Shown: positions 1,104-25,779 of the stretch, in pieces
Position numbering within the stretch: the first letter of the stretch is position 1
Layout: the number at the start of each line of letters is the position of its first letter
Assembly (NCBI GenBank): GCA_964581255.1
Contig: CAZOMT010000007.1
Span: 1-29,803 of the forward strand
Source: an uncultured Thermodesulfatator sp.
Lineage (GTDB): Bacteria; Desulfobacterota; Dissulfuribacteria; Dissulfuribacterales; QOAL01
Reading direction: 5' to 3'
DNA: 29,803 nt
Position numbers and translations under genes: made by a program
The notes under the pieces: generated by a model
What the model saw: only the letters and a program-made list of their open reading frames with translations
Told to the model about the DNA's origin: nothing
The model's database searches: none

Positions 1104-2340
1104 TCATACAGCGTGTGTAGTGGCCCAGTGGGGCCTGAAGAGGATATGGGCCTCTGAAATGGTTTGATCTGCACAATATTCACCAGACGACATGATCCCT
1201 GTTCCTGGTCTGTATTTGTCCAGGAAGCTGCGGAACGATCTGGTAATACTGCTGGATGTAATCTTTGATTTCACCTCTATTGGAACCACCTGCCCCTGTC
1301 TCTCAACAATAAAATCCACCTCTGCCTTGGATTTGGTGCGCCAGAAGCGGAGGGGAACATCCTTTTTTAGAAGCTCTGAGGCAATGAAGTTTTCATGCAG
1401 CGCACCCGTATCGCCTCGCGCGTCAAGGCCTCTGAAATTCTGTATGCTCATATTGCGGAACCCGTTGTCTATAAAATAGAATTTCGGGGTTTTTGTAAGT
1501 TCCACCCTCTTGTTGGTGTGAAAGGGCAGGCATGGGGCCACGACAAATGTCTTGATTAAAATATCCAGGGCGCTGCGCAATGCCCTGTATTTCAGGCCTG
1601 TCAGACCTGAAAGTTCATTGTAGTTGCACGTGCTGCCTGTCTGCAGGGCCAGGGCAGTAATCAGTTTTTTCAGCTCAAGGTCTTGTTTGTACCCAAGAAT
1701 CTGCCTGATCTCCTTTAGGAGATAGGTGTGAAAGATATTTTTCAAGACCAGTTCCCTCTCCTCATCACTTTTGGCAAGGGCAACCCTGGGGTAACCTCCA
1801 AAGACAGCATATCGGTTATAAAAGCTGTTTATCCGTCTGATGATTTCCTGGCTTGGGCATTCGGGGCTTTTGAGGAATCTGACCAGGCTGGGCTGGACGA
1901 ACCTCAGAAATTCTGCAAAGGACAGTGGATAGAGAGTAAAGACAAAAATCCTGCCAACAAGATATTGGATGCTCTGGATGGAAAGTTCTGTAGCTGAGGA
2001 ACCAGTGATAAATATCTTTATTGGATAGTTGTCATAGATGTATTTTAAGTTTCTGCCGCCAGCCTCTGCATACTGAAACTCGTCAATAAAAAGATACTTC
2101 TTTCCTTCAACATAAAGATCGCAAAATCCCTTGATGTCATTGGTAAAAAGGGCGAGTTCATCCCGGTCTTCAAAGTCTATTACTGAAACCTCTTTATCCT
2201 TAGTTTCCTTTACTATGTGCTAGAGAAGGGTGATTTTACCCGACTGCCTTTACTACTGCAATGATTTCTGGCCTATCAAGACAGGCTGAATTTTTTCCTT
2301 CAAGGTCTCTTTATATACCGCTCAAAGTTCTGCATAAATT
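1104..2340 (-). pseudogene. Decayed AAA/DUF4143-type ATPase gene with a disrupted N-terminal P-loop region
   Basis: ORF 1104-1745 encodes the DUF4143-type C-terminus (KTPKFYFIDNG, GALHENFIASEL, EVDFIVE...IEVKSK). Its frame continues upstream with no ATG/GTG/TTG through ...KKYLFIDEFQ (Walker B). It then reaches a recognisable but broken Walker A: ...PVLIGQKSLQ**RQSGKITLL*HIVKE. My manual translation finds in-frame stops at 2220-2222, 2250-2255 and 2322-2324. Confidence 0.7.
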
Positions 2341-2417
2341 ACCCTGCCAAAATTGCAATTACAAAAATTTTAAATTTTAACAGAGTTATGATGACTCAAC
2401 TCAAAATGCAATAAAGG

Positions 2418-4712
2418 TCAGGAGAAATCTTTCTGCCAGCACTTCTCCCAGTGTTCCTGTGCTTCGATGGAAGTTGCAGGAAAACCATGATATAGCCTCA
2501 AACCAGTGATTGTCTCTGGATCGTCATGGTTAAAAAAGACAGGGGCCTTATTTGGAAAGTATGAAGCTGTAAAAGGATTATGTGCTTTTGGACCAATGCC
2601 AATAAGAAGTGCTGATTGCGGCACAGCTTCTGTGGATTCGTTGATTTTTAATAAAGGATGCGAGGCTAATTCAAGACGTTGAGCCATTGACCTTTGTTTT
2701 TTGAGAAATGAGATGGCCTTTGTTGCATTCCATTCTCGTATCCATCCAAACTTTGATTTAGCATAGTCTTGAATTCCATCAAAAAACAATTTTCTTCTGG
2801 CTCCAGGGCTGTAAAATTGGGAAATACCGGTGGACAAACTTTTATCTTCTGAAAGATCTTCTAAAAATTCTTCAAAATATTCAGTTAGTTTAGGCTTGCT
2901 GAATTTATGGTAGTAGAGCTTTTTAATGTCATCTTGATCTTCTACTATATGTATTTCAAATGGAGTGACACTAGGATATATCTTGTCAATCTGTTCCTGA
3001 ATCCAGTGTCTTGTCTCTTCAAGTTTTGAGATAAAGGCCTTTATTTCCTCTTCAAGGGGGTTAATAAGTTCCCGCAATTTTTTAGCTACAAACAGTGCGA
3101 AGAAAAATGGAAAGAGCCTTTGGTATCCTTCAAAGACCTCGACACAAATTAACTCCATATATTCCTTAAGCTGTTGGAGTTCTTTTTGTAGAGCTCGTTT
3201 CTTGGAGAACAAGGACCAAGATCTAGGATCATATCTGTGCCATCCAAGTTCAGAGATTTTCTGGTCAAGATCCTGAATTTTTTTAAGGACAGATCGTGCC
3301 TGATCCATAACCCTCTCAAGGGTTGTAATAAGTTGTGCTTCAAAGAGACCTACTATGTCCTGGAAGCCACCTGAAGTAAAAGGATGGGTATAAGGTTCTG
3401 CCAACGCTTCCACAATAAAAGACACCTTGTGTTGGAGCGCTCTGATGAATTCTTTATCTGCTCCAAGCAGCTTATCCATATCTGGTTGTTGGAGAAGACA
3501 CTCAACCTCGTTTTGAAGGGCCTCCCAGGACGAAAGTTCCGGTAAGGGGAGTTGATATGCCTTATAAAATTTTCTTAGCATCTCTGATGCTTCATGAAGG
3601 AGGCGCTTTAGGATAGGAGATGCAGTCTGTCCCTGCCATCCAAAAAGAAAACTCTCTATTGAAACTGGATATGGTGCTTCAGATTCTTCCAGTGGTTCTT
3701 TTTGTAGAAATTCAAGGTACGGACCACCTACCCCCAATACAAGTCCAATAAAACCCCAAGCTGAGTAAGGGGCATGAGGGGCCTGGTCAAGGATCTCCTC
3801 AAGTTCTTTCTTGACATCTTTATATAAGGCTTCTGCAAGAGGTAATATTTTTCTATAGCATTTGATCTTTTTTTGTTCGATTAATAGCCTCAACTTAGCG
3901 AGGAATTTTTCTATAGAGTTTTCCTCTTCTATGGCAAGATTCGCTGGCAAGATATTCTGCCTGGATAACATGACCGGCTCGGCTATCAAGCTGGCTAGAT
4001 CAGTGAGCCGTTTCTTGAACAGTGAATGAACCTGTGATATCTGTATCTTGGTTGCGTCCGAAACAGCTTCAAGTGGAGATAGGGCCTTTATGTTTAAAAG
4101 GTCACGGGCCAACATTAGCCCCAGACTATCTTGCCATTTAGTCGCAGGAAAGCACAATTTTCCTATGCCCACTGATCCATATAAAAATTCCCTTCCTCTT
4201 GTAAGCTTTAGTTTGATTTCTTCATTAAAGGACCGGTACAGATCCGTGGACAGATATATGTCTATGACCTCTTTGAGCCGTTCAAAAGGCATGCGGTCGC
4301 TATCAAGGAGCCAAATAAGGTTAGGGGATTCTTTTGAATCAAGACCGTTAAGCTCGATGAAGAACTGGTAACACTTAGCCTTGGTTCTCTGATCGGCCTC
4401 TATGGAAGGCAACAAGATGAATGCCTCCAGCTCAACAGGGATAACAAGAATGCTTTTATGAATATCAATAAGGGTCTCAATAAACGTCCTAAGCGTTATA
4501 TCTGTATCTTCATAGGCAGCAGCAGTAAATATATATCTTATCGCGCTGACTTTTTTTGCCTTACATTCCTTGTAAATAGGGAACAATTTGGTTTGTAGCC
4601 ATTCTTTAAATTCTCCGGGGTTTATATGGCGAGCCGTAATATTATGTGAAGAAACAGGAGCAATATTTGCTCCTGTTTCTCCAAGTCCTATGAAGACTAG
4701 GCTTTCTTTCAT
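2418..4712 (-). CDS. Large tubulin/FtsZ-like paralogue with degenerate GTP-binding motifs (function unknown)
   Basis: The long minus-strand ORF has stop at 2418. Possible starts are GTG 4745, ATG 4739 or ATG 4712; 4712 lies 10 nt after the upstream stop with AGG 8 nt upstream. N-terminus VFIGLGETGANI (4662-4697) resembles a T1 loop. TFIETLIDIHKSI...AFILLPS aligns by eye with SFIDAAFLFHKAL...GFLILPS of the adjacent 950-aa protein. The GGTGSG signature is replaced by YEDTDITLR. The middle region is long and helix-rich. Confidence 0.6.
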   Translation of the reverse strand: MKESLVFIGLGETGANIAPVSSHNITARHINPGEFKEWLQTKLFPIYKECKAKKVSAIRYIFTAAAYEDTDITLRTFIETLIDIHKSILVIPVELEAFILLPSIEADQRTKAKCYQFFIELNGLDSKESPNLIWLLDSDRMPFERLKEVIDIYLSTDLYRSFNEEIKLKLTRGREFLYGSVGIGKLCFPATKWQDSLGLMLARDLLNIKALSPLEAVSDATKIQISQVHSLFKKRLTDLASLIAEPVMLSRQNILPANLAIEEENSIEKFLAKLRLLIEQKKIKCYRKILPLAEALYKDVKKELEEILDQAPHAPYSAWGFIGLVLGVGGPYLEFLQKEPLEESEAPYPVSIESFLFGWQGQTASPILKRLLHEASEMLRKFYKAYQLPLPELSSWEALQNEVECLLQQPDMDKLLGADKEFIRALQHKVSFIVEALAEPYTHPFTSGGFQDIVGLFEAQLITTLERVMDQARSVLKKIQDLDQKISELGWHRYDPRSWSLFSKKRALQKELQQLKEYMELICVEVFEGYQRLFPFFFALFVAKKLRELINPLEEEIKAFISKLEETRHWIQEQIDKIYPSVTPFEIHIVEDQDDIKKLYYHKFSKPKLTEYFEEFLEDLSEDKSLSTGISQFYSPGARRKLFFDGIQDYAKSKFGWIREWNATKAISFLKKQRSMAQRLELASHPLLKINESTEAVPQSALLIGIGPKAHNPFTASYFPNKAPVFFNHDDPETITGLRLYHGFPATSIEAQEHWEKCWQKDFS

Positions 4713-4722
4713 TATCCATGCC

Positions 4723-7575
4723 TTATGCAATGAGTTCATTTGCACTGGATCCGTTCTTCACCCAAGAATCAAGAAATGTCAATTGCTTGTGCAATAGGAT
4801 CTTGTCTCCAAGGTTAATGGAACGGTCCTCTTCGTTAAAAGTCTTTTTTACATCCTCAAGATAGGCGCGCATTACCTTGCTGACCCTTTCAGGTGAAGTC
4901 TCTATCTTTTCCTTTAGAATCGAAAGAAGTGCGTCAACAAGTTCTTGCCTGTGCGGTTTTTTGAGTTCTTCAAACACTCTCCAGGCAGGATAACCAAGTT
5001 CAAGCCCTTCCTCATCAGCCTTCAGACAGCGCGAATCGTCGATGACGTAACGGCCATAGAACTTTTCCTCTTTTATAAGGCCTAGTGCCATGGAAAGCAT
5101 GTAGATACGAAAGGCCTGTTTGTAAGAAGTATCTTCCGGAAACAGGTCAGGCATTTTGAATTCCAGGTCCTCTGCAATGTGTGGTGTGTTCTCAATAGGC
5201 GCCTCAAGATACATCAGCCGGTATCTTTCCATATCTGCCAGTAGGTAAACTGCAAGGGGTGCCTTGTATTTAAAGAAAAAGATCTTGTGTGGATCAGATG
5301 TAGACATAATGGTAGGAGGATACTGGGCATCTGGAAAGAGGATGTTATTCAAGGTGGTCTTATGCTCGCTATTGACACCAATAATAAAGATCTCTTCCAT
5401 GGTGGCTGCCTGGTCTACACTGGCATTGTGACGCCAGAAGGGAACTGCCCGGCGGGAGGCCTCTCTCAACCAGTATTCCAGGCCCTCCTTACGCAAAGAA
5501 AGTAATGTCTCTATATCAATATTCTTTATGGGGCCTACCATTTTATGGGTATAGGACATGATCTTTTTCCACAGGTCCTTCCAGTTAATATCTTCAATAT
5601 CTCCCATGGTCATCTTGTTTTCTTTCAGAAACTCCTTTGGATCTGGAGGCTTAATGTTAAGTTTGCTAAAGTCAGAAGGTAGCTCTATCAGTTCCTTGGT
5701 CTGTGACAGTTTGATCCTGCCATCTTGTCCTGTTGTTTTAATAAAGATATCATGAGGGAACAGGATGAGTGAGAAATGTCCATATTCATCAAGGACTCTG
5801 GTAGTGCCAAAGTAGTCCTGTTCTATTTTCTCCCTAACACGAGAAAGCTTCATTTCCATGACACCAAGGCCAAGGCCTTCTATGTAGTTTTTCATGCTTT
5901 GAATGATCTTGTTGAGGACTTCAATGGCCTGCCTGTGCCGCTCAATATCAAGCTCAAGCTTGAATACCTCCCCCATCTCATCCAGATAACTCTGGAAGAT
6001 CTTCCCCTGTTTTCTTAGTATCCGGAATCCCAGGCCAACTTTGGTTACGTTGTTATCATAAAAGTCTTTTGCCATTTCCTGGTTTTTGCCAAGTTTTTTT
6101 TCTAGACTCTTAATCTCTTCAAGGAATTCATCTTTGAACAGGCCTAAGCGGGCAGCAATCTTCTCTGCGGACTTGCGTGTATAGATGAACCCCTTGCTCT
6201 CCTCCCTGTCCTTGAGAAACGATTTAACAACTTCCAGTGCATTTTCTTCCTTTTGTATACGGTTTTGCCCTGTAACTTCCCTTAAGGAATCGCGCCTGCG
6301 GACCCCTGAGTCCACCTCCAGGTTCAGCTCCGAAGAAGAACCAAGGCCATCAGCCGAGAGACGAAAGAGCAGGTTTTGATATGTCAAGATGTCATCCAGT
6401 ATCTGCTCCTTATTCAGTCTGGCTTCTGTAAGGAATTTTTGGATAGCTTCTTCCACCTCCTTGTCCTGACCATTTCCGTTATCCCCTTTAATTAATCCGT
6501 TTAGTCCATCAATAAGGGTATAGGCATAGTAGGTAGAGATTTGATTGAAGTGCTTCTCTATGGGATAAATAATGGAAGATATCCCTAAGGTAGAATAACA
6601 AGAATTTTTCTTATTCCATCTTGGAGAGTTGGCAACGATACCTGCCAGGTTGTCAAATGCTGATTCGCTTCTCTGGCCAATATTCCCGAGATTAAGGGCT
6701 ATCCCCTCACCAACAATGCGGCAGAGTGTCAGAACACCACTTGATGTGCCCTTGCCCGGAATGATATTTCCGTTTTCCTGTACTGCGTCGACAAGGCTTA
6801 TGAGATCATAAGGTGGCCGCCTTGGGGAAAATTCCGAGCTTCCAAACACGAAAGTTGGTGCTTGGCGTAAGGAATTAATGTCCATGTAATAATCGAGTTC
6901 TTTTAATGCAGCATATCCGTTCATCTGCACCCTTGGGGTTATTGGCAATCCTTCAAAAACAGAAGGAAGAATCAAAAAGCCTATCACTCTGTGCTCGACG
7001 TTTTCCAGTGCCTTATGAAACAGGAATGCTGCATCAATGAAGGAGCCGCTTCCAGTCCCTCCTGCCAGAGAGGCAATAATGTAGACATCAACTGAGTTAT
7101 CTATCAGTTTAAAGCCCTGTTCTTGATACATATTATGAGCCAGGTTTCCAGCCATGACCTGACTAACTACCTGGGTTATGATCCCCTCGACCTTGTGTGC
7201 ATAGGCATGAAATGCAAGCCGGCCCCTGGCCCTGTAACCGCCAGCTCCGTGAAGAATTGCGTTGACAGGAATGCCCTTAGGCCACCACTGCTTTATGGCA
7301 GGGGAGGTCTGTATGACGTTAAGTGGGTTCTCCACATTGAGATAGTGGAATTCATCCTCTCTTATTCCCACAACCGTTGTCCGCTCTCCTTTTATATTCA
7401 CCCTTAGTGGGCTTGGCCGGTTACTGTCTGTATCCATGGCGAGGAATTTGATGCTGTATGGTATCTTTTCATAGAATTGGATCAGTGCTCGCTTTATAAA
7501 TTGAACCACCTGAATACCTGACCCCCCTATGCCGACAACGACACTTCTCCTTATTCTTGCAATGCCCTCGTTCAT
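4723..7575 (-). CDS. Tubulin/FtsZ-superfamily GTPase, large 'tubulin-like' (Tubulin_2-type) protein
   Basis: ATG at 7575 is preceded by AAAGGGAG. T1-type loop VVVGIGGSGIQV lies at ~7516-7533. Tubulin signature ASLAGGTGSGS lies at ~7042-7066. There is also a GAGGYRARGRLAF motif. About 650 aa of helical/coiled C-terminal extension follows the GTPase core. Confidence 0.8.
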   Translation of the reverse strand: MNEGIARIRRSVVVGIGGSGIQVVQFIKRALIQFYEKIPYSIKFLAMDTDSNRPSPLRVNIKGERTTVVGIREDEFHYLNVENPLNVIQTSPAIKQWWPKGIPVNAILHGAGGYRARGRLAFHAYAHKVEGIITQVVSQVMAGNLAHNMYQEQGFKLIDNSVDVYIIASLAGGTGSGSFIDAAFLFHKALENVEHRVIGFLILPSVFEGLPITPRVQMNGYAALKELDYYMDINSLRQAPTFVFGSSEFSPRRPPYDLISLVDAVQENGNIIPGKGTSSGVLTLCRIVGEGIALNLGNIGQRSESAFDNLAGIVANSPRWNKKNSCYSTLGISSIIYPIEKHFNQISTYYAYTLIDGLNGLIKGDNGNGQDKEVEEAIQKFLTEARLNKEQILDDILTYQNLLFRLSADGLGSSSELNLEVDSGVRRRDSLREVTGQNRIQKEENALEVVKSFLKDREESKGFIYTRKSAEKIAARLGLFKDEFLEEIKSLEKKLGKNQEMAKDFYDNNVTKVGLGFRILRKQGKIFQSYLDEMGEVFKLELDIERHRQAIEVLNKIIQSMKNYIEGLGLGVMEMKLSRVREKIEQDYFGTTRVLDEYGHFSLILFPHDIFIKTTGQDGRIKLSQTKELIELPSDFSKLNIKPPDPKEFLKENKMTMGDIEDINWKDLWKKIMSYTHKMVGPIKNIDIETLLSLRKEGLEYWLREASRRAVPFWRHNASVDQAATMEEIFIIGVNSEHKTTLNNILFPDAQYPPTIMSTSDPHKIFFFKYKAPLAVYLLADMERYRLMYLEAPIENTPHIAEDLEFKMPDLFPEDTSYKQAFRIYMLSMALGLIKEEKFYGRYVIDDSRCLKADEEGLELGYPAWRVFEELKKPHRQELVDALLSILKEKIETSPERVSKVMRAYLEDVKKTFNEEDRSINLGDKILLHKQLTFLDSWVKNGSSANELIA

Positions 7576-7607: not shown

Positions 7608-9725
7608 TCAGTGAAGCCTTCTCCCTTTTGATCTAGGTGGCCTTTTACGTGAGACGATCCTGACGACATAGTCTCTCCCATTATCTTTAAATATCAGGAA
7701 GTCGCCTCCATAGAGGTTTTCCATGACCACTGGTTTTGTATCCCCCTGCCTCTCAATAAATATGTTTCCTTTTTCTGCCCTTATCCTTAGCCCCCTGCCC
7801 CAAGTAGCAGAAAGGGTAAAGGCAGTTTCCTCAAGCTCGGTGAAGGCATCTCTCCTATTGCCACATCTCAAGCTGTCGCCAGACAAGGATTTCTTGACCT
7901 TTTTATGGCATGACATGAGGATGTCTGGTCTACCCATTGGTTTTTCCACAATAAGCTTTCCTGATAATCTGGGCCTTAACACATATGCAAGTGAAAGGAG
8001 GAGTACCACTCCAAGAAGCGCAAAGATGCCCCATACCCATACGGCCCATTTAAGATCAAAAAGACAAAAAGGAGATTCTATCCTCACCCTTTTACCATTT
8101 GCAAGACGCCCTGCAATGACTACTTGGGCAACATACCTGCCCCGTTCCAGGTCAGCCCTTTGTACGTAGTACAGGATCTTCCCATCTACTTTTTTGTGTT
8201 TCAACTCCATTATTGGCAGATGTGTGTTGCCCTGTTTCTTTACCTTATCAAGGTACAGGAAGATTCTTGGAAGCTCCGAGAACCGTGGGTAGTTTCGATG
8301 ATGGGTATCAAACTCGACCACAAAGCTAACGCCCTTCCACAAGATGGGCCACATTACTTGCGTCCCTTCTGGGAGTTTGAATGTGAAGAAGGCCTCCTTG
8401 ATCCTGACCGGCAACACAGGGCTTTTTCTAAGGAAAAAGCCTTTATCATCCCTGGCCTTAATTTGAAGTAGATAGTCTCCCTTTGTGGGCGTTTCCCCTT
8501 TTATGTTTAGCTGAGTAAGGTAGGTACCCTTTCTGGTTCTTTTAAGGCAAAGGGCATTGTCGCTGCTCTGAAAGTCCTTCTTACGGTCAAACCTTAGGGT
8601 CATCTTGCAGGGTCTTTCTGAGATGGCCCCTGTTCGCTCGTCATAGAGCCAGGCCATGACCGTTTTTTTCTCTCTGTCCCAGTATTCCCTGTTTACCAGA
8701 TAACGAAGGTGGACCTGATTTCTTATTAGGGTCGCTACCCTGGGAAAGTCTCCATTGGCCAGGATTACTTCCCATCCCCCGGCAGAGGGCTCCTGTATAA
8801 TAATCAGGTCATAGAATTCTCCTGAACGCCACTGAATATTTGGATTGGATAGGGCATGGTTAAAGTCTATCTCTTTTCCACTAAAGTCTTTCACGCGGAT
8901 GTCTCTGGTAGTACAGAGCGTGTGGCCAGGGATTCTCTTTAGCACCAGAAAGACAAGGCGGTTAGTGCTATCATCTGTCCAGAATACCTTTTGTCCCTTT
9001 AGTTCCTCATATCCCTTTGTGATTCGTAAAACATCCACACAGGTTTCAATCAGCTCTTCCACAGATCTTACAGGAAAGAATCTTCCGCCGCTGGAATCAG
9101 CCATTCGGTTCAAAAGGCCCAAGCCATTTATGCCAGGGAGGAAATCCCTGTTTATCTCTGTATCTCCAAGGCCGATGGTATAAAAGGGTATGATGTCGGC
9201 AAGAGCTTGCCAGTCCTGGATTAACCTTTGGTATGAAGACCTGACATCTCCCCTTGGCTCAAGCTTGCCGTCACTTATTAAAATGACTGCTGGTTTTGCC
9301 TTGCCGGTTCCTCGAAAGAGAGATGCTGTTTCTTGCCTAAGCAGGGTTATTGCTTTTGATATGTCTGTGTGGCGGCCTCTAAAAGAGAAGCCTGACTCAA
9401 GGGCCATCTTAAGGCGGTTTCGTTCGTTCTCGCCTGCTATTGTTTCAGTAGCAATGATCCTTGCATCTGTATCAAAGGTGATAAGGGAAATCCTGTCTCC
9501 TATCTCTGCAAGCTCTATAAATGCCTTAATAGCCTCTTTAGCAAATGTTCTTGATTCTCCCCTGGGGATGCTGCCAGAATTGTCCAGCAAGAATACATAG
9601 TCTACAGGAAGCCTTACCTCCTCTGGCACAGGAGGTGGATGAATGCTTGGAGCCGACTGGCTCCCTTTACAACCAGCGATAATAACTAACAAAATAATAG
9701 GTAGGAATCGGCTTATCTTCCCCAT
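7608..9725 (-). CDS. vWA-domain lipoprotein with a C-terminal transmembrane helix and short cytoplasmic tail
   Basis: The N-terminus MGKISRFLPIILLVIIAGCKGS is a signal peptide with lipobox IAGC. MIDAS motif VFLLDNSGS lies at 9570-9596, and VILISDG follows later. TM helix WAVWVWGIFALLGVVLLLSLAYVL lies at ~7975-8046. It is followed by a ~105-aa basic tail. Confidence 0.75.
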   Translation of the reverse strand: MGKISRFLPIILLVIIAGCKGSQSAPSIHPPPVPEEVRLPVDYVFLLDNSGSIPRGESRTFAKEAIKAFIELAEIGDRISLITFDTDARIIATETIAGENERNRLKMALESGFSFRGRHTDISKAITLLRQETASLFRGTGKAKPAVILISDGKLEPRGDVRSSYQRLIQDWQALADIIPFYTIGLGDTEINRDFLPGINGLGLLNRMADSSGGRFFPVRSVEELIETCVDVLRITKGYEELKGQKVFWTDDSTNRLVFLVLKRIPGHTLCTTRDIRVKDFSGKEIDFNHALSNPNIQWRSGEFYDLIIIQEPSAGGWEVILANGDFPRVATLIRNQVHLRYLVNREYWDREKKTVMAWLYDERTGAISERPCKMTLRFDRKKDFQSSDNALCLKRTRKGTYLTQLNIKGETPTKGDYLLQIKARDDKGFFLRKSPVLPVRIKEAFFTFKLPEGTQVMWPILWKGVSFVVEFDTHHRNYPRFSELPRIFLYLDKVKKQGNTHLPIMELKHKKVDGKILYYVQRADLERGRYVAQVVIAGRLANGKRVRIESPFCLFDLKWAVWVWGIFALLGVVLLLSLAYVLRPRLSGKLIVEKPMGRPDILMSCHKKVKKSLSGDSLRCGNRRDAFTELEETAFTLSATWGRGLRIRAEKGNIFIERQGDTKPVVMENLYGGDFLIFKDNGRDYVVRIVSRKRPPRSKGRRLH

Positions 9726-9742: not shown

Positions 9743-10483
9743 TTATACATTAAGGTGAGACCTTGCTGGCCTCACAGCTATGATGGTTATATTATCCCTT
9801 CCCCCAGCCTCATTTGCCTCTTTGACTAAAATGTCGCAGGCCTCTTGAAGATCATCTGCCTGTTCCATCAAGACTTTTTCTATTTCCTCGTCCTTAAGCA
9901 TGTCTGTCAGTCCATCGGTGCAAAGGATTAACAGCTCACCTGAATAGGCGATTTCCTTGGTTTCTACCTCAACAGCAGGATTTATCCCCAATGCCCGTGA
10001 GATAGTATTGGCCCTTGGGTGGAGCCTGGCTTCCTCCTCAGAGATTTCTCCCTGTGATATAAGCTGAAATACCAAAGAATGATCGTTTGTCAGCCGTTTC
10101 AGTCCCTTTTGTGTAAGCATGTAGGCCCGGCTATCTCCCACATGGGCCAGAAGAAGCCTGCCCTCCCTTATTACTGAAACGACTACTGTGGTTCCCATGC
10201 CATAGAGCGAAGGATCCTCTATTGATTTCTGGTACACTATCTTGTTTGCTTCTTCTACCACCATTTCAAGATCCTTCAGCGTTATCTGCCCATCTGCCAA
10301 GGGGGCAAGAAGACGTGAAATCTCATCTACTGCCAGAGTGCTTGCCACTTCTCCAGCCTGGTGCCCCCCCATTCCATCTGCCACGATAAAAAAAACTCTA
10401 TCCTGTTCCACACAAAAGGCATCTTCGTTATTGATCCTCAATTTGCCCTTATCGCTATTAGCTCCAACTTCAAGCCGAATCAA
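9743..10483 (-). CDS. PP2C-family Ser/Thr protein phosphatase
   Basis: Motifs present: NNEDAF, VADGMGGHQAGEVAS, CTDGLTD and GGRDNITIIAV. A TTG start at 10483 lies 2 nt after the FHA gene stop. There is no in-frame ATG upstream of the conserved N-terminal block. Confidence 0.85.
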   Translation of the reverse strand: MIRLEVGANSDKGKLRINNEDAFCVEQDRVFFIVADGMGGHQAGEVASTLAVDEISRLLAPLADGQITLKDLEMVVEEANKIVYQKSIEDPSLYGMGTTVVVSVIREGRLLLAHVGDSRAYMLTQKGLKRLTNDHSLVFQLISQGEISEEEARLHPRANTISRALGINPAVEVETKEIAYSGELLILCTDGLTDMLKDEEIEKVLMEQADDLQEACDILVKEANEAGGRDNITIIAVRPARSHLNV

Positions 10484-10485
10484 TT

Positions 10486-10839
10486 TCAGGCTCCAAGAAA
10501 TTTCAGCCAGATGGATCGTCCAAGCACAATAATATCTCCTGGACTTACAGCTACCTTGTCTCCAGGGATTGGTGGACTATCATTTTTCTTCCAGATCTCT
10601 GTTTCTGTTCCATCCGTAGCAATTATCAAGGTGCCATTAGTGCTTCCCTTGCCATCGTTTCCGGTGTCAATGACAAAGTAGTTTTCCTTTACATGATCAA
10701 TTACTGCATGTCTCTGGCTGACCATCCCAGCATAGCCAATGGGTATGTCATTTTGGGCTCCGCGGCCAAGGGTCACCCTGTCCCTATTTATTTCTACCTT
10801 TTGGGCATCTTCAGGCCCAAACATCACCTCAAATCTCAT
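10486..10839 (-). CDS. FHA-domain protein (phosphothreonine-binding)
   Basis: 117 aa containing VTLGRGAQNDIPI...VSQRHAVI...GSTNGTLI, the canonical FHA G-R / S-x-x-H / N-G signature. Its start overlaps the upstream kinase stop by 11 nt. Confidence 0.85.
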   Translation of the reverse strand: MRFEVMFGPEDAQKVEINRDRVTLGRGAQNDIPIGYAGMVSQRHAVIDHVKENYFVIDTGNDGKGSTNGTLIIATDGTETEIWKKNDSPPIPGDKVAVSPGDIIVLGRSIWLKFLGA

Positions 10840-12136
10840 TTTTTTTCATCTCCATTATGATTTCCTTGGGTTCTACTCCCCTTTTTCTTAAAAGCCAGGA
10901 AAAGAAGGTCTCCTGCTCAAGGAGATAAAAGGTGAATTCCTTAATTCCCACCCCTTGTGGAAAACGTTCCTTTACTCTCCTTAGTAGGTCTTCCAGTCGC
11001 ATGGACACGGCGCGTGCACTGGGAAAGTATTCGATTCGCTTAAGGCCATTAAAGATCTCCTTTCGTATAAGCTCTGGTGCCACTTTCATCATTAAGAGTG
11101 TAAAAGAAAGGGTGGATTCCCGTTCAAGAAGTGTCCATAGCACATGCTCAAGCCCAAGATAGCAGTTTGAGACCTTTTGCTGTGTAACCGTGAGGCTGAA
11201 GAATAATGCCCTTGTCAGGGTCTGCTGCAAGTCATCTTTAAGGCCGATAAAGAGCTCTTCTTTTTCCTTATCCCATTTTTCAAGAAAGGCATTTTCCCTG
11301 TCTGTCTTGAGTAGGGTCTTACCTGGCGAGACAGACAAATCAGCATGTCGAGGTTTTTCTGTATTCCAGTACACAGTTGAGATATTCATGCTCAGCAGCC
11401 TGACACAATCCCTTGCCAACTCTTCAGCAGAACAGCGTTTTTCAGGTACTATGTTACAGGCCTTTTGAATAATTTCTTTCAGATGGTCTGGGATATTGAA
11501 AAAATCTATACTTTCATGCGGTAGGACCTCCTTTGGCCTGCCTCCCAGCATTTCATACAAACATACGCCAAGACTGTATACGTCGCTTGCAGGTGAGTGA
11601 TTTGCTCCCTGGAATATCTCAGGAGCGGTGTATGTTTGTTTAAACGGAATGCTCCTAAATTCTTCTGCCTTTGAGGCAAACCCCATATCCCCCAATTTGG
11701 GTAAACCAGAAGCATCAAAAAATATGTTCTCCGGACACACATCCCTATGGATCATACCTATGGCGTGCATATCACCTAAGGCACAAGCTATTGAATATAG
11801 AACCTGTATCGCATCGTTCACTTCCATACCACATTGGATCCTCTGTCTGAGATCTCCTCCTTCCATATATTCTAAAAGTATATGAAGGTAAGGGGACGAA
11901 AACTCGCTTGCTCCCAGAAATTTCACGAAATAGGGTTTATTGCTGAAAAGGCCCATTATCATGACTTCATTAAAGAAATCTGTATAATCAAGCTCTGGGG
12001 AATATAGCTTTAATGCTACGAGGCCAAGCCTTTTGCAATCGGCAAGATAGACTTGGGAAAAGCCTCCCTTCCCAAGAGATCTTATTATTACACAGTCACC
12101 AATTTTGTCTCCGATGCTCAAGAGATATTCATCCAT
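10829..12136 (-). CDS. Hanks-type Ser/Thr kinase with atypical catalytic motifs, fused to a C-terminal Clp_N-like double repeat
   Basis: G-loop LGKGGFSQV, VALK lysine, catalytic loop HRDVCPEN (Cys where Lys is usual), DMG instead of DFG, and YTAPE. The C-terminal ~135 aa (about 10832-11235) has two repeats: YLGLEHVLWTLLERES...VAPELIRKEI and IKEFTFYLLEQETFFSWLLRKRGVEPKEI. These match the Clp N-domain repeat pattern (EHLLLALL...L...GV....L). Confidence 0.75.
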   Translation of the reverse strand: MDEYLLSIGDKIGDCVIIRSLGKGGFSQVYLADCKRLGLVALKLYSPELDYTDFFNEVMIMGLFSNKPYFVKFLGASEFSSPYLHILLEYMEGGDLRQRIQCGMEVNDAIQVLYSIACALGDMHAIGMIHRDVCPENIFFDASGLPKLGDMGFASKAEEFRSIPFKQTYTAPEIFQGANHSPASDVYSLGVCLYEMLGGRPKEVLPHESIDFFNIPDHLKEIIQKACNIVPEKRCSAEELARDCVRLLSMNISTVYWNTEKPRHADLSVSPGKTLLKTDRENAFLEKWDKEKEELFIGLKDDLQQTLTRALFFSLTVTQQKVSNCYLGLEHVLWTLLERESTLSFTLLMMKVAPELIRKEIFNGLKRIEYFPSARAVSMRLEDLLRRVKERFPQGVGIKEFTFYLLEQETFFSWLLRKRGVEPKEIIMEMKKNEI

Positions 12137-12181: not shown

Positions 12182-12228
12182 GAATTTTATCATTTTTTAA
12201 CAAAATAAAGCAAGTAGATTTGTTCCTT

Positions 12229-15200
12229 ATGAAGGTGCGGCAAGATGTAGGAACTGATGTATCAGTTGCTTTCTGTAGTACACATTCGTGGTTTTCAGAA
12301 AGCGGCATTATCTATCCAATCAATATCCAGGTCTCATCTAATGGCGCGGATATTCCTATCAGCTACCGTATAGGCTCTCCAATCAAGGGTACTTTCCTTA
12401 GGGTGGGTGACCCAATCGGAGGAAACAGGTGGCGAGTTCTTAAGCGCCTGGGATCAGGCACAACAGGCGTTGTCTATCTTGCTTTATCCCAGACAAATGG
12501 AGAACTGGTTGCTGTTAAAACAATAAAGCAGGATCTTGCAGTCGGGTCTGAGTCCGACATTAGCGACTTTTTTTATTATGAAGCCCTTGCCTGGACACAG
12601 GTAGGACGTCATCCAAATGTCTTATGGGCCAGAGATGTGGTAAGTGTTGCCAAGAAGGTATGGGTGAGCATGGATTATATTCCTGCTCCAAAGGGGCTGT
12701 ATGGAAGTTCGCTTCGCAATTGGATCAAGTTTCGACGTCCTTTCAGCCTGAAGCAGATTCTTCTTTGGGCAGTCCAATTTTGCCTTGGGATGGAACACGC
12801 ATTGCGAAACGGGATTAAGTGTCACAGGGATATAAAACCTGGAAATATCCTCATAGATCCGGAGAAAAGGGTAAAGATAGCTGACTTCGGCCTGGCTGTA
12901 TATACGGATAGAAGAAGGTCAGGAGTCGTAAGGTGTGGCACCCCCCAATATATGTCTCCGGAACAGTTCGAAGGTGTGGACGAGGTGGATGTGCGAAGCG
13001 ATATATACAGCTTCGGTGTGGTCTTATTCGAGATGTCCACAGGAAACCTTCCCGTTTCACCACCCCCGCATTTAAAAGAACAATACTTCCTTGCCCACCC
13101 AGATTTTCGGAGGCTCTCATGGGAGCTTTGGCGCAAGGTACACAGGGAACAATCCCCTGCCAACATTGGCGGGCCTTTGGGGCCGATCATACTCAAATGT
13201 CTTGAGAAGGCCCCACACCACAGGTTTCAGAGCTTTGCCGAGCTACGCAGTGCGCTCTTGCAGCTTTGCCGCAGGCTGGGTATCGCTGTTGAGTTACCTG
13301 AGGTTACAGGACCTTCAACACATGAACTTAACGTCAGTGGAGTCCAGCTACTGGCGCTTGAGATGTTTGATGAGGCCATGGGATATTTTGACAAGACCCT
13401 TGAGCGAGAAACAATGAACATGCACGCCATAAATGGTAAAGGCCTTTGTCTTTATTACCTTGGTCAACATGAAAAAGCCATCAAGTGCTTTCAGAAGGTC
13501 CTTGATCAAGACGGTCAGGATATTTGTGCCCTGGTGGGAAAGGGACTTTGCCTACAGGGCAAAGGTGATTTCGAGCAGGCTGGAAAGTTTTTTCAAGAGG
13601 CGCTTTACGTAAATTCTTCTCTACCCCATGTATGGTATCACATGGGCGAGAACTTTTTGGGCCTTGGGCAGCAGAGGAAGGCAAGGAAATGTTATTTAAA
13701 GGCTCTTAGTCTTCTTGTAGCCCTTAAATGCCAAGACGAGGCCTGTACGCTGATAAAGTCCATTGAAAGATACTTTCCGGGTGACATCCAGCTTATGCTG
13801 TTTCACATCTGGGCGCATAGGTTAAGAGGACAGGTGGAAAACAAACTGATGGATTATTTGTCTATAACCAAAGACAGTTTTGTCGCCCCTGAGGATGATC
13901 CTGAATTTGCCGGGATACTTGCTGGAACATATAAAAGGTTATGGGCTGCAGCACCTGAAAAAAACATGGATAAACTTGAAGAGGCCTATAGGCTCTACCA
14001 TACCGCATGGCTTGGCTCTGGCAAGACCAATACCTATGTGGGCATCAACGCGGCTACACTTGCCCTGTTTCTTGGAAGAGCCGAGGAGTCGAGAGAGACC
14101 GCCAGAGAAATAAAAAAGATATATGAAAACCGCAGCCTCAATGACCTTACAGATTCTGAATCTTCATATTCAAGCTATTGGGATCGGGCGACCCTTGCTG
14201 AAGCTGAACTTCTTCTAGGACACCTTGGCAAGGCACGGCGCATCTACCAGGAAGTCATGGACCTTTACAGGGAAAAAAGGACCTATGTGGATAGCTCAAT
14301 GGATCAGATAGACCTAATCCTTCCTCGCCTTGGATTGTCGCTGAATGCAATAGATTTCTGTGGCCAGCAACCCAGCTCGCCTGGGGTAAGAAGTGTGAGA
14401 TTTGGGATTACTGGCCACAGGGCACTGGAGGATCCAGCCAGGGTTTCAGAGGGTCTAAAGATAGCTGTTGAGACCATCAGGCGTAAACTTCCCCCTGATA
14501 CCGTCTTTGAGATCATCTCACCTCTGGAAGAGGGTGCTGACAGGATTGCGGCAAATGTTATGTTGAAAGAATTTCAAGCCTTGCTTTGGGCAGTCTTGCC
14601 ATTTGATCCAAAGGATTACATGGCACATTTTGGTGGCAGTAATTCCCAATCCACAAAGGAATTCAGGAAATTTCTTAATCAGGCCGAAGAACTGACTATA
14701 CTATCTCCAGCAAACGATATGAACGAGGCCTACAGCAATGCTGGACGGTATGTAGTGGACAACTGCGACATCCTTATAGCCGTATGGGATGGCAAGAAGG
14801 CCAGGGGAGAAGGTGGGACTGAAGAAATCGTAGCCTATGCCAGGGACAAAGGGCAACCGCTTATCTGGATTGAATCCGTCCCCCCCTGTGGCATTCATTT
14901 TGAGAGATTAGACAGGCTTAACACTTTAGACTTTACAAAAAGGAATTTTGATATGTACAAACCAAAACCTATTGACACCTCCAATATCCATCTGTCTGAT
15001 GATCTTCTTGAGCTTACGGAGCTTCTTGCTGAAAACGCCCATGAGAACTGGGCAAAAAAGCGTATGGATGAAGGCTGGACTTATGGCCCCGAGCGGGATG
15101 ATGCCGCAAAGAAACACCCAGACCTTATACCATATACAGAGCTTTCTGCATCAGAGAAGGAATACGACCGCAAGATGGCCCTTGAAACCCTGAAGGCAAT

Positions 15201-15234
15201 AATCGCATTAGGATACAAGATCTGGAAAGAATAG
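12229..15234 (+). CDS. Multidomain Ser/Thr kinase: kinase - TPR - DUF4071-like helical region - SLOG (YpsA-like) - RyR domain
   Basis: Start is ATG 12229, with an alternative TTG at 12220.
- Kinase (~12429-13270): LGSGTTGVVY, VAVK, HRDIKPGN (12823), DFG, GTPQYMSPE.
- TPR-like repeats: ~13320-13720.
- Helical region (~13750-14290): AGTYKRLW...YVGINAATLALFLG, resembling the MAP3K-TRAF-binding/DUF4071 signature.
- SLOG/YpsA-like (~14386-14880): GITGHR, SPLEEGADRIAANV, AVLPF, DILIAVWDGKKARGEGGTEEIVAYA.
- RyR repeat (~15025-15210): AENAHENWAKKRMDEGWTYGPERDDAAKKHPDLIPYTELSASEKEYDR. Confidence 0.75.
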   Translation: MKVRQDVGTDVSVAFCSTHSWFSESGIIYPINIQVSSNGADIPISYRIGSPIKGTFLRVGDPIGGNRWRVLKRLGSGTTGVVYLALSQTNGELVAVKTIKQDLAVGSESDISDFFYYEALAWTQVGRHPNVLWARDVVSVAKKVWVSMDYIPAPKGLYGSSLRNWIKFRRPFSLKQILLWAVQFCLGMEHALRNGIKCHRDIKPGNILIDPEKRVKIADFGLAVYTDRRRSGVVRCGTPQYMSPEQFEGVDEVDVRSDIYSFGVVLFEMSTGNLPVSPPPHLKEQYFLAHPDFRRLSWELWRKVHREQSPANIGGPLGPIILKCLEKAPHHRFQSFAELRSALLQLCRRLGIAVELPEVTGPSTHELNVSGVQLLALEMFDEAMGYFDKTLERETMNMHAINGKGLCLYYLGQHEKAIKCFQKVLDQDGQDICALVGKGLCLQGKGDFEQAGKFFQEALYVNSSLPHVWYHMGENFLGLGQQRKARKCYLKALSLLVALKCQDEACTLIKSIERYFPGDIQLMLFHIWAHRLRGQVENKLMDYLSITKDSFVAPEDDPEFAGILAGTYKRLWAAAPEKNMDKLEEAYRLYHTAWLGSGKTNTYVGINAATLALFLGRAEESRETAREIKKIYENRSLNDLTDSESSYSSYWDRATLAEAELLLGHLGKARRIYQEVMDLYREKRTYVDSSMDQIDLILPRLGLSLNAIDFCGQQPSSPGVRSVRFGITGHRALEDPARVSEGLKIAVETIRRKLPPDTVFEIISPLEEGADRIAANVMLKEFQALLWAVLPFDPKDYMAHFGGSNSQSTKEFRKFLNQAEELTILSPANDMNEAYSNAGRYVVDNCDILIAVWDGKKARGEGGTEEIVAYARDKGQPLIWIESVPPCGIHFERLDRLNTLDFTKRNFDMYKPKPIDTSNIHLSDDLLELTELLAENAHENWAKKRMDEGWTYGPERDDAAKKHPDLIPYTELSASEKEYDRKMALETLKAIIALGYKIWKE

Positions 15235-15281: not shown

Positions 15282-15327
15282 TCGTTTTTATAGTCTTTAG
15301 TATAGCCACGCCTTGGGAGGGGAGGAG

Positions 15328-25774: not shown

Positions 25775-25779
25775 ATAAA

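Follow-up and report, generated by a model that had tools for sequence, protein, structure and literature searches.

The locus raises the question of why a large tubulin/FtsZ-like GTPase should be encoded immediately upstream of a protein that resembles it and carries a degenerate GTP site, and what function such a pair would have in an operon of signalling genes. The window, that is, the whole stretch of DNA analysed here, comprises 29,803 nucleotides from an uncultured Thermodesulfatator sp. The two genes, FtsZl1-A and FtsZl1-B (proteins A and B hereafter), are tightly spaced and come last in a six-gene operon with the order kinase, FHA, PP2C, membrane-spanning vWA, A and B (Table 1). An earlier sequence-only reading of the locus had proposed an obligate heteromer of an active and an inactive subunit under phosphorylation control. 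All of its sequence claims (open reading frames, motifs and upstream Pfam genes on the same strand) were verified.

Operon organisation

Pfam annotation confirmed that kinase, FHA, PP2C and vWA genes lead the operon, an arrangement that is conserved within the clade. It also identified no division or cell-wall genes anywhere in the window, in agreement with the lack of division context noted previously. The FHA and kinase genes share an 11-nt overlap, and promoter and terminator scans along the operon gave results no different from shuffled sequence. The C-terminal ~135 aa of the kinase are Clp_N-like, being homologous to the kinases of related loci L003, L005 and L090 that bear a Clp_N match, with the C-terminus of the window kinase itself scoring E 0.15 against Clp_N (Pfam). 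The longest open reading frame of B begins at GTG 4745 (4745..2418, minus strand, 775 aa), and the true start is probably the ATG at 4712 (M12, 'MKESLVF'), because orthologues begin at this codon, it has an AAGG 8 nt upstream, and pLDDT is <50 for residues 1–12. As this ATG is 10 nt past the A stop codon, the A and B genes abut without overlapping.

Table 1 Coordinates of the operon genes, nucleotide-site motifs, candidate accessory genes and a DO-GTPase2 gene in the window
Feature	Position (nt)	Strand	Size (aa)	Description
Kinase	10829..12136	-	435	Ser/Thr protein kinase; first gene of operon; Pfam Pkinase E 8e-35; sequence shows HRD, N and D(M)G
Stand-alone FHA protein	10486..10839	-	117	Phospho-threonine reader; Pfam FHA E 6.9e-10
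PP2C-type Ser/Thr phosphatase	9743..10483	-	246	Pfam PP2C E 1.5e-19; DGMGGH and GGRDN motifs
Membrane-spanning vWA protein	7608..9725	-	705	Pfam VWA_2 and VWA
FtsZl1-A (protein A)	4723..7575	-	950	Pfam Tubulin_2 E 2.7e-56
FtsZl1-B (protein B)	2418..4712	-	764	Length from probable ATG; GTP-site-degenerate paralogue of A
T1 loop of A, GIGGSG	7516..7533	-		A residues 15–20
T4 tubulin signature of A, AGGTGSG	7045..7065	-		A residues 171–177
Degenerate T4 equivalent of B, YEDTDITLR	4488..4514	-		B residues 78–86 (775-aa numbering)
T1 remnant of B, GLGETG	4671..4688	-		B residues 20–25
Kinase-TPR-TPR-S-RyR protein	12220..15234	+	1004	Divergently transcribed candidate accessory gene; Pfam
Kinase-TPR protein	20038..22677	+	879	Candidate accessory gene; Pfam
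ClpB/ClpC-like double AAA+ ATPase with Clp_N	22713..25079	+	788	Candidate accessory gene; Pfam
DO-GTPase2 gene	25780-26940	+		About 18 kb from operon, on the other strand; Pfam

Protein A is a member of the FtsZl1 family

Protein A scores 191.8 bits against Pfam Tubulin_2 (PF13809; gathering cut-off 27), and its AGGTGSG motif is an exact match to the PROSITE-type tubulin signature, [SAG]GGTG[SA]G. Alignment of 34 A-family members revealed invariant glycines in the T1 loop (G17, G18 and G20) and an invariant G172, G173, T174 and G175 in T4, and the further invariant positions (D48/T49, G110-A-G, R115 and N219) are all intact in the window protein. Its architecture comprises a tubulin/FtsZ-like N-domain (~1–363), a long helical stalk (~368–597) and a C-terminal alpha/beta domain, and the AF2 model has a pLDDT of 88. 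Comparison of this model with the PDB using Foldseek returned 52 matches at E ≤1e-3, of which all 50 listed are tubulin, FtsZ or TubZ (TM to target 0.44–0.50 for FtsZ, up to 0.50 to E. coli FtsZ). A phmmer search of A against PDB sequences gave no match, an NCBIfam search was uninformative for all three of A, B and vWA, and a hydropathy scan detected no transmembrane (TM) segment in A. Protein A is a full member of FtsZl1 / Pfam Tubulin_2, which within the tubulin/FtsZ superfamily is the branch that has diverged furthest. The previous assignment of the 950-aa protein to this superfamily on the strength of both GTP motifs stands, and its capacity to bind GTP is supported by these motifs as far as sequence can tell.

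No T7-like catalytic loop was located in A or B. An A-family-invariant motif, NxYAALKEL, was considered as T6 but probably belongs to T5/H5, beyond which Makarova & Koonin could align nothing further. These authors found no T6-H7/T7 equivalents in the FtsZl1 family (PMC2875224), and FtsZl1 proteins may not polymerise at all.

Protein B is a paralogue of A

The by-eye alignment of B with A in the sequence-only reading did not reach significance in pairwise comparison (BLASTP of A against B, best E 0.3; E 0.43 for the TFIETL/SFIDAA block). Its register was reproduced by profile methods. Comparison of the B family with the A family using hhalign gave a probability of 99.8% (E 3.4e-29, 579 columns), with the N-domain, stalk and C-domain of the two proteins aligning end to end and the N-domain of B being reduced. 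The motifs of B (775-aa numbering) are VFIGLGETGANI at 17–28, YEDTDITLR at 78–86, TFIETLIDIHKSI at 87–99 and AFILLPS at 108–114; the profile alignment places YEDTDIT opposite GGTGSGS of A and pairs SLVFIGLGETGANI with SVVVGIGGSGIQV. When the A-family profile is used as query in a plain hmmsearch, B is detected with E 1e-9. Pfam gave no match for the window protein at E ≤1, and 4 of 15 B-family members weakly match Tubulin_2 (best 6e-5, below the gathering score). A phmmer search of B against PDB sequences produced chance-level matches only, a word-index homologue search recovered B itself only, and an exhaustive HMMER search found 16 relatives among 1.84 billion representatives.

The AF2 model of B has a pLDDT of 86.1, and the top 24 Foldseek matches in the PDB are all CetZ, TubZ, FtsZ, tubulin or BtubAB (E 1.8e-3 to 3e-2; TM to target 0.25–0.38). 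These E-values are modest, and the fold assignment of B consequently rests on their agreement with the profile match. It is extremely improbable that B is an unrelated helical protein whose likeness to A is a coiled-coil or compositional artefact: the BLASTP result, the marginal Foldseek E-values and the long helical stalks of both proteins, which can raise profile scores, would be compatible with this, but comparison of the stalk-free N-domains still gives 93.7–96.7% probability (E 2e-7 to 4e-10) against ≤0.5% for controls (vWA; reversed sequence), the aligned blocks fall on the tubulin S4-T4-H4-S5-H5 core and the top 24 of the independent structure search are solely of the tubulin superfamily. 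Taking profiles and model together, B is a genuine paralogue of A with a predicted tubulin/FtsZ-like fold, as had been proposed.

Loss of the GTP site in B

As judged from the alignments, the nucleotide site of B is lost. A segment equivalent to A ~36–158, which carries the invariant D48/T49, G110-A-G and R115, is missing; about 90 GTPase-domain residues with invariant motifs are deleted, and the invariant N219 of A corresponds to K122. No B-family member keeps a Gly-rich loop at the T4 position. Of the proteins surveyed, 89/89 of A type carry a relaxed tubulin signature versus 0/48 of B type, which takes beyond the window protein the earlier observation that YEDTDITLR replaces the signature there. 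At T1, a low-stringency alignment pairs GLGETG of B with GIGGSG of A, and this remnant is not conserved, orthologues reading DLTGSS, GFGEIA and DLRKSG. Protein B is predicted to be unable to bind any nucleotide.

That B is a decaying relic of tandem duplication, with no function of its own, would agree with its much faster evolution than that of A, its loss of all catalytic motifs and of ~90 GTPase-domain residues, its lack of any Pfam match and the fragmentation of both A and B in the Nostoc locus L022. This is nevertheless highly unlikely and close to refuted by conservation, given that intact open reading frames of 765–1355 aa are maintained at 18–39% identity over several phyla, that B lineages conserve residues in a clade-specific manner as well as a TM hairpin, that the AF2 model is confident and that the duplication is older than these clades, over which time a relic would not last.

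Conservation of the pair and its operon

A B-type gene lies directly 3' of A in 46 of the 76 related loci with enough downstream sequence, and these A-B loci come from Cyanobacteria, Acidobacteriota, Bacteroidota, Pseudomonadota MAGs and one archaeon. B was not detectable directly downstream of A in 30/76 surveyed loci, where either A can function on its own or a B gene has diverged too far or sits at another position. The A-B intergenic gap (10 nt in the window) is -3 to 35 nt in most loci, and a vWA gene lies directly upstream of A in 45/74. The same gene order as in the window operon was found in L001, L003/4, L005, L006/7, L090 and L091, with an FHA gene at the same position in L001, L003, L005, L006 and L090 and a PP2C gene throughout the orthologous loci. 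Both the vWA-A-B triad and the six-gene module are conserved, and the co-occurrence of the pair anticipated by the sequence-only reading is seen in these orthologous loci as well as in the broader set.

The closest relatives in the genome collection are 24–33% identical. A is more conserved than B (A-to-A profile E 1e-56 to 1e-126; B-to-B profile E 2e-13 to 3e-76), and the B-to-B matches are stronger than any A-to-B score. B lineages are closer to each other than to A, indicating that the A/B duplication is old. Systems with the recurring pair probably work as two-protein assemblies.

Membrane association

From N- to C-terminus, the vWA protein consists of a signal/lipobox (IAGC), an extracytoplasmic vWA domain with an intact MIDAS (DNSGS, residue 48), a beta-rich region, a single TM helix (~558–585) and a cytoplasmic tail of ~115 aa (hydropathy scan). 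Pfam assigned no family to the tail or to the beta-rich ectodomain. The vWA proteins upstream of A in ~45 loci have a like topology and an intact DxSxS motif, with MIDAS, TM helix and tail being uniform. TM-like segments occur in 0/85 A proteins versus 35/48 B proteins; the stalk of B is the site of a TM hairpin in most other clades, and B is soluble in the clade of the window.

Genomic neighbourhood and biological role

In addition to the candidate accessory genes (Table 1), the window encodes TIR_2, MoxR and DO-GTPase2 proteins (Pfam) and, following the DO-GTPase2 gene, a 620-aa protein without a Pfam match. Several of these genes recur near related loci. A kinase-TPR gene related to the 1004-aa protein lies 3 kb downstream of B in L001, where homologues of the 879-aa kinase-TPR protein (E 5e-233, 9e-195) are found within the operon and immediately after it and an RHH-PIN pair is inserted into the operon. 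In L005, an orthologue of the 788-aa ClpB-like protein (E 5e-200) is encoded within the operon, between PP2C and vWA, and L008 has a TIR_2 gene upstream. The vWA-A-B triad of L044 is flanked by a DUF4062-NACHT-TPR gene and a RelA_SpoT-TPR-RyR gene, the latter directly after B. A search of PADLOC-DB v2 gave no match for A, B, vWA or FHA, just generic similarities for the kinase and PP2C.

The neighbouring genes suggest a conflict or immunity role rather than one in cell division, and division or cytoskeletal function was considered and set aside as the main interpretation given the lack of division genes, the patchy distribution and the immunity-like neighbours. The neighbourhood and the related loci point to biological conflict no less strongly than to generic membrane remodelling. 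This role is contextual, since cyanobacterial loci such as L010 have housekeeping genes (e.g. BipA) around the module, and it may be specific to the clade of the window.

Of the alternatives, the one that survives best is that vWA-A-B is a housekeeping machine for membrane remodelling or vesicle biogenesis, the proposal of Makarova & Koonin 2010 (PMC2875224), with the immunity-like neighbours being coincidental. The components are membrane-linked through the TM helix of the vWA protein and the TM hairpin of B in most clades, the module is vertically conserved in Nostocales amid ordinary genes, and the lack of a PADLOC match is also consistent with this. We regard it as possible, if not favoured, because the distribution is patchy, the flanks are variable and are immunity-like in three independent clades (TIR, DUF4062-NACHT, RelA/SpoT-TPR-RyR, PIN-RHH, MoxR, DO-GTPase), and the mere 16 B relatives of the window's clade among 1.84 billion representatives are unlike what is seen for a core function.

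Proposed mechanism

We consider an A/B hetero-oligomer under vWA and phospho control, with a conflict output at the membrane, to be the most likely mechanism, with moderate confidence; heteromer formation, phospho-regulation and biological role are each inferred from the gene and model data. A and B would be co-produced and assemble into a hetero-oligomer in which GTP is bound and hydrolysed by A alone, with B as a non-catalytic partner that may limit or shape the assembly of A and, in most other clades, may also anchor it to the membrane via the TM hairpin of its stalk. In the clade of the window, the membrane link would be the vWA protein, with its MIDAS-competent domain outside the cell and its tail inside. 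Kinase, PP2C and FHA together could set a reversible phospho-threshold for assembly. The output would belong to biological conflict, as an immunity or stress response at the membrane, rather than to cell division.

A alone might instead form a GTP-dependent homopolymer like FtsZ and TubZ, with B as a separate regulator, cap or tether whose tubulin-like face binds filament ends or the vWA tail. Retention of every nucleotide motif in A, the more conserved of the two proteins, the 30/76 loci without a detectable B directly 3' of A and the TM hairpin of B in most clades, which suits a tether, are consistent with this geometry. The strict pairing where B exists, with adjacent genes and usually short gaps, and the shared three-part architecture, which suggests matched assembly partners, make it rather doubtful, somewhat more so than a housekeeping role; it differs from the hetero-oligomer in stoichiometry and geometry only, which sequence analysis cannot separate.

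A more elaborate form of the favoured hetero-oligomer would make vWA-A-B a widespread and so far unrecognised trans-membrane machine, in which the extracytoplasmic MIDAS sensor steers, via its tail, GTP-dependent assembly of an obligate A/B heteromer on the membrane's inner face. In the clade of the window, this would be gated by the kinase/FHA/PP2C switch and a ClpB-like disassembly factor. The output would be immune or abortive-infection, for example through remodelling or perforating the membrane or by acting as a scaffold for TIR or NACHT effectors. This extended version is speculative and, as a whole, unlikely.

Comparison with known systems

GTP is bound by each subunit of the alpha/beta-tubulin, BtubA/BtubB and Asgard AtubA/B heterodimers, with turnover at only one nucleotide site. 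The analogy with alpha/beta-type pairs drawn in the sequence-only reading holds in that paralogous tubulin-fold proteins are encoded as an adjacent, co-expressed pair, and such proteins occur in the structural matches of A and of B. It is otherwise loose, since the GTPase and activation domains of those subunits are complete, whereas in B the Gly-rich T4, the T2/T3 segment and with them the pocket and ~90 GTPase-domain residues are gone and acidic residues stand where the pocket would be. A and B, which are known here from genes and monomer models, also differ from tubulins in having a helical stalk of ~230 aa and an extra C-terminal domain. B is better termed a pseudo-GTPase partner. Tandem bacterial dynamin-like pairs (Campylobacter DLP1/DLP2, PDB 5owv) are adjacent paralogous large GTPases that form hetero-oligomers at membranes. 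Their long helical stalks and two-paralogue membrane logic are similar by analogy only, since the GTPase fold is unrelated and the Foldseek match to 5owv covers the helical part alone (probability 0.21).

The family had been described in the sequence-only reading as noted in comparative genomics and largely uncharacterised; it was in fact described specifically, under the name FtsZl1 and together with its operons of vWA and protein-kinase genes (Makarova & Koonin 2010, Biol Direct 5:33, PMC2875224), and no experimental characterisation after that description was found in the searchable literature. The window operon agrees with those operons in its upstream vWA gene with intact MIDAS, its Ser/Thr kinase and its lack of division context, and A follows the FtsZl1 domain plan of an FtsZ-like N-terminal domain and helical stalk, with a vWA protein in the operon. 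In contrast, the downstream gene was not recognised as a homologue in that study: alr2044/Ava_4731 is entered just as 'coiled-coil' in Additional file 5, and other partners are the uncharacterised families B1-B9. The FHA and PP2C genes, the Clp_N-like kinase tail and the ClpB-like partner are also absent from the published description. The vWA and kinase context itself had been described there.

Tubulin and vWA modules of the DO-GTPase/GAP1-N2 type have also been placed among NTP-dependent conflict systems (Kaur et al. 2020, eLife 9:e52696, PMC7159879). The passages of that paper on these modules describe coiled-coil-fused tubulin-domain proteins with membrane vWA proteins, as found here, with two tubulin genes in Firmicute versions and an added active kinase, PP2C and vWA in actinobacterial versions, and interpret them as regulated assembly of cytoskeleton-like complexes during biological conflict. 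The systems in those passages differ from the window in phylum and in their DO-GTPase or GAP1 genes, neither of which adjoins the tubulin and vWA genes in the operon (Pfam), and an active/inactive split between two tubulin genes is not described there.

If the gene that regularly follows A encodes a paralogue whose GTP pocket is destroyed, A is best studied together with B and probably also with the vWA tail, for which alr2042-2044 in Nostoc sp. PCC 7120 offers a tractable example. The pair would provide a natural active/pseudo-enzyme system in which to study the evolution of heteromeric assembly among tubulin-fold proteins, and the finding also ties a tubulin-fold module to Ser/Thr phospho-signalling and immunity-type neighbourhoods. 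Should the trans-membrane machine prove true, it would represent a prokaryotic tubulin-fold active/dead pair that serves defence rather than the cytoskeleton.

The GTPase belongs to the FtsZ-like 1 family

The 950-aa protein with intact GTP motifs (FtsZl1-A, hereafter A) was assigned to Pfam Tubulin_2 (PF13809) over residues 12–351 (E 2.7e-56, 191.8 bits vs a cut-off of 27), which is the 'FtsZ-like 1' (FtsZl1) family of Makarova & Koonin 2010 (PMC2875224). Genes of this family usually share an operon with a vWA gene, and protein kinases are often encoded there too; a role in membrane remodelling was proposed for them by the same authors (PMC2875224). FtsZl1 as published already includes A, the vWA partner and the link to kinases. 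An alignment of 34 relatives revealed invariant positions of A in loops T1 (G17, G18, G20) and T4 (G172-G173-T174-G175) of the nucleotide site, and further invariant residues at D48, T49, G110, R115, N219, Y221, A223, L224 and E226. The AlphaFold2 model of A (pLDDT 88, pTM 0.76) comprises an alpha/beta N-domain (residues ~1–363), a helical stalk (~368–597) and a C-terminal alpha/beta domain. Foldseek comparison of this model with the PDB gave 52 matches at E<=1e-3, with all 50 of the 50 matches listed being tubulin, FtsZ or TubZ (e.g. OdinTubulin, 7.7e-5; Aquifex FtsZ, 1.2e-4), and a TM-score of 0.50 against E. coli FtsZ.

The downstream gene is a paralogue with a degenerate GTP site

The abutting downstream gene encodes a 775-aa protein (hereafter B) that has no match in Pfam, NCBIfam or PDB sequences; BLASTP of B against A was not significant (best E 0.3), and an exhaustive HMMER scan found only 16 relatives of B among 1.84 billion representative proteins. 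The sequence-only reading had proposed B as a paralogue of A, and this proposal is borne out by profile-profile comparison, N-domain controls, HMM matches and AlphaFold2/Foldseek analysis. A profile of the 15 B-family sequences matched one of the 34 A-family sequences at a profile-profile probability of 99.8% (E 3.4e-29, 579 columns), with the alignment spanning B residue 68 to ~755. It pairs YEDTDITLR-TFIETLIDIHKSI with GGTGSGSFIDAAFLFHKAL, and AFILLPS with GFLILPS, identical to the register previously drawn by eye. When the comparison was restricted to N-domains as a safeguard against coiled-coil bias (three A clades, three B clades), probabilities were 93.7–96.7% (E 2e-7 to 4e-10); control values were <=0.5% both for N-domain profiles against an alignment of vWA, another three-layer alpha/beta fold, and for reversed B against A (E >=0.1). 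Weak Pfam Tubulin_2 matches were present in 4 of the 15 B-family members (best 6e-5), and the window's B was found by a plain A-family HMM at E 1e-9. The AlphaFold2 model of B (pLDDT 86.1, pTM 0.74) is divided into the same three parts as that of A, and its 24 best PDB matches in Foldseek all belong to the tubulin superfamily (CetZ1, phage TubZ, M. jannaschii FtsZ, tubulins, BtubA/B and Asgard tubulin), with a probability of 1.0 but E 1.8e-3 to 3e-2 and TM-scores to target of 0.25–0.38. Taken alone, this predicted structure is modest evidence for the fold of B, and it agrees with the profile evidence. By these four independent lines, B is a real paralogue of A.

B is, moreover, almost certainly a paralogue whose GTP site has degenerated. 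The replacement of its tubulin signature by YEDTDITLR, recognised in the sequence-only reading, holds on alignment to T4 of A, where GGTGSG becomes YEDTDIT, with acidic or bulky residues, and a Gly-rich loop occurs at this position in no B-family member. B has no counterpart of A residues ~36–158, the segment holding D48/T49, G110-A-G and R115, and the invariant N219 of A pairs with K122, a nearly invariant residue of B. R70, Y71, H96 and E107 are further conserved residues of B. Under a permissive alignment, SLVFIGLGETGANI of B pairs with the T1 stretch SVVVGIGGSGIQV of A, the T1 remnant GLGETG not being kept in orthologues (DLTGSS, GFGEIA, DLRKSG). A relaxed signature, G[GS][TS]G[SACG][GS], was detected in 89/89 A-type and 0/48 B-type proteins and a strict PROSITE-type tubulin pattern in 77/89 and 0/48, respectively; in cyanobacteria, for example, T4 takes the form LSVSNQFARG. 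These motif losses suggest that B would be unable to bind GTP. The analogy with alpha/beta-type pairs drawn earlier is apt for paired paralogues with one active site but fails for nucleotide binding, as alpha- and beta-tubulin both bind GTP whereas B lacks the GTP-site motifs.

Operon organisation

All six ORFs of the operon are on the minus strand (12136 to 2418) and follow one another head to tail, with intergenic gaps of −11, 2, 17, 32 and ~10 nt in order, and a terminator scan of the operon found no terminator-like site exceeding the shuffled-sequence level; the short gaps and the lack of such sites indicate a tight operon. All motifs quoted in the sequence-only reading were recovered where it had placed them. 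The start of B is most likely the ATG at 4712 (M12, MKESLVF), since orthologues begin at the matching position, an AAGG precedes it by 8 nt, and residues 1–12 are the sole very-low-confidence segment of the AlphaFold2 model; this ATG sits 10 nt past the stop codon of A. The C-terminus of the kinase (10829–11236, minus strand) is Clp_N-like, clearly so in the related loci L005 and L090 and only at E 0.15 in the window, and together with the ClpB-like neighbour it hints at a kinase–Clp connection.

Features of the window in the operon and its neighbourhood
Feature	Position	Strand	Length (aa)	Remarks
Ser/Thr kinase	12136..10829	-	435	Pfam-confirmed
FHA protein	10839..10486	-	117	Pfam-confirmed
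PP2C phosphatase	10483..9743	-	246	Pfam-confirmed
vWA protein	9725..7608	-	705	Pfam-confirmed
A	7575..4723	-	950	Pfam Tubulin_2
B	4745..2418	-	775	Longest ORF
DUF4143 ORF	7-960	+	317	Partial AAA_14 match; beyond 3' end of B
DUF4143-only ORF	1104-1745	-	213	Beyond 3' end of B
Kinase-TPR-TPR-S-RyR	12220-15234	+	1004	Divergent from operon
TIR_2 protein	15313-16371	+	352	N-terminal TIR_2, E 1.6e-16; C-terminal two-thirds uncharacterised
MoxR-type AAA+ (AAA_5)	16919-17890	+	323	Overlaps start of 715-aa gene
Protein without Pfam match	within 16919-19979	+	715	After MoxR
Kinase-TPR	20038-22677	+
ClpB/ClpC-like double AAA+ with Clp_N	22713-25079	+
Radical-SAM (Fer4_12)	first gene of 25121-28799 row	+
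DO-GTPase2	25780-26940	+		E 1.2e-6, just above gathering score
Protein without Pfam match	within 25121-28799	+	620	Overlaps DO-GTPase2

Conservation and age of the A/B pair

The A/B pairing is conserved far beyond the clade of the window. The closest relatives of A are found on metagenome contigs (37–58% identity), and the order kinase, FHA, PP2C, vWA, A, B is kept in the related loci L001, L003/L004, L005 and L006/L007, with the B proteins of L001 and the window aligning end to end (31% identity, E 5e-142). A B relative of very remote similarity (P0134, 24% identity) belongs to the L090 operon, ordered PP2C, kinase(Clp_N), FHA, vWA, A, B, and another distant B follows a truncated A-type gene in L091. 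We surveyed 80 A-type loci from one-genome-per-species contigs, scanning all ORFs with A- and B-family HMMs. The gene following A was a second, strongly diverged Tubulin_2-like gene in 46 of the 76 loci whose sequence continues for 1.5 kb or more past A, including loci from Nostoc, Anabaena, Calothrix, Acidobacteriota, Thermoanaerobaculia, Chitinophagales, other Bacteroidota, Pseudomonadota MAGs and a Hadarchaeum, and vWA lies directly 5' of A in 45 of the 74 loci having enough upstream sequence. B profiles from different clades match each other best (E 2e-13 to 3e-76, vs 2e-7 to 4e-10 for A to B), indicating that the A/B duplication is older than these clades and that B has evolved faster since.

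Two loci depart from the simple pair. An uncultured bacterium MAG (L084, 7305–13827) carries three Tubulin_2-like genes in a row, of which the middle one is intact and the outer two have altered T4 loops (SPLFDGLGSG and GSLSETKCSS); the FtsZl1 family thus also forms triplets with graded degeneration. In a Nostoc MAG (L022, 9962–15795), each gene of the pair is broken into two ORFs (686 + 194 aa for A, 276 + 744 aa for B), reflecting either decay of both genes into pseudogenes or frameshifts in the assembly.

Membrane topology

TM-like segments were found in 0/85 A-type proteins, and the window's A has no hydrophobic segments. Such a segment is present in 35 of the 48 B-type proteins, usually as a hairpin of two hydrophobic stretches mid-stalk (B-type genes outside the window's clade, in loci L008–L060; e.g. 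residues ~559–616 of the gene at 12764–15808 in L010). Members of the window's B clade (window, L001–L007, L043 and L044) have no TM segment and are ~250 residues shorter, having either lost the hairpin or never had one. Nearly everywhere, the vWA partner is anchored at its N-terminus, keeps the DxSxS MIDAS motif intact, and has a single TM helix followed by ~100–130 cytoplasmic residues. In the window, the anchor is a lipobox-like IAGC, the MIDAS motif is DNSGS (residue 48), the TM helix spans ~558–585 and the tail measures 115 aa. The topology survey therefore defines a conserved core of three proteins: vWA, which spans the membrane; A, soluble and GTP-competent; and B, GTP-dead and usually membrane-inserted. 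The window's vWA tail (7608–7960, minus strand; residues ~590–705) resembles by eye a small beta-sandwich with FHA-like G/D/hydrophobic spacing, and a Pfam search of this tail returned nothing at E<=10.

Genomic neighbourhood and possible role

The kinase-TPR and ClpB-like genes can be tied to the operon, as kinase-TPR homologues of near-identical architecture (E 5e-233, 9e-195) occur inside and just after the L001 operon and a ClpB-like orthologue (E 5e-200) lies between PP2C and vWA in L005. An RHH_1/PIN toxin-antitoxin-like pair (L001 6873–7516; also L002 1059–1702) is inserted together with the extra kinase-TPR gene between PP2C and vWA of L001, the operon being otherwise collinear. In L044, genes for a DUF4062-NACHT-TPR STAND protein and for a RelA_SpoT-TPR-RyR protein flank vWA-A-B, the latter (15403–18105) directly following B; set beside the window's kinase-TPR-TPR-S-RyR gene, this points to a recurring neighbour built as 'enzymatic head + TPR + RyR', with the head domain swapped. 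A TIR_2/aspartyl-protease fusion protein is encoded upstream of vWA-A-B in L008. Within the window, the 715-aa protein could be the co-chaperone of the MoxR ATPase in a 'ternary system'-type pair, and the radical-SAM/DO-GTPase2/620-aa row could be a DO-GTPase/GAP1-type system adjoining the tubulin operon. GC content is 37% at 2001–3000 (end of B and spacer) vs 42–53% elsewhere, a dip that may mark an island edge.

Kaur et al. 2020 (PMC7159879) count tubulin + vWA modules among NTP-dependent conflict systems, some with two tubulin genes in Firmicutes and others with kinase, PP2C and vWA in Actinobacteria. Counting against a defence reading, PADLOC has no models for A, B or vWA, and the cyanobacterial loci are surrounded by ordinary genes. 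We regard a conflict or immunity role and housekeeping membrane remodelling as equally plausible.

In the mechanism that we propose, A and B would form a hetero-oligomer in which GTP is cycled by A alone and B is a non-catalytic partner that would limit or shape assembly and, in most clades, also tether it to the membrane. We lean towards A and B acting as a heteromer; a T7-type catalytic loop was located in neither protein. Through its tail, the vWA protein would relay metal-dependent binding on the extracytoplasmic side to the A/B pair in the cytoplasm, the kinase/PP2C/FHA trio would provide a phosphorylation threshold that is reversible, and the ClpB-like ATPase may take the product apart. 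Whether phosphorylation directly gates A/B is, in our judgement, finely balanced.

Relative to the searchable literature, the new element is that the conserved downstream gene, until now 'coiled-coil' or uncharacterised, is recognised as a paralogue that arose by an old FtsZl1 duplication and has had its nucleotide site destroyed. Of the two proteins, this is usually the one inserted in the membrane; Additional file 5 of Makarova & Koonin lists this gene as alr2044/Ava_4731, 'coiled-coil' (PMC2875224). The kinase(Clp_N)-FHA-PP2C front end, with its ClpB-like and kinase-TPR accessories, represents a distinct six-gene variant. The finding alters how the FtsZl1 family should be studied.
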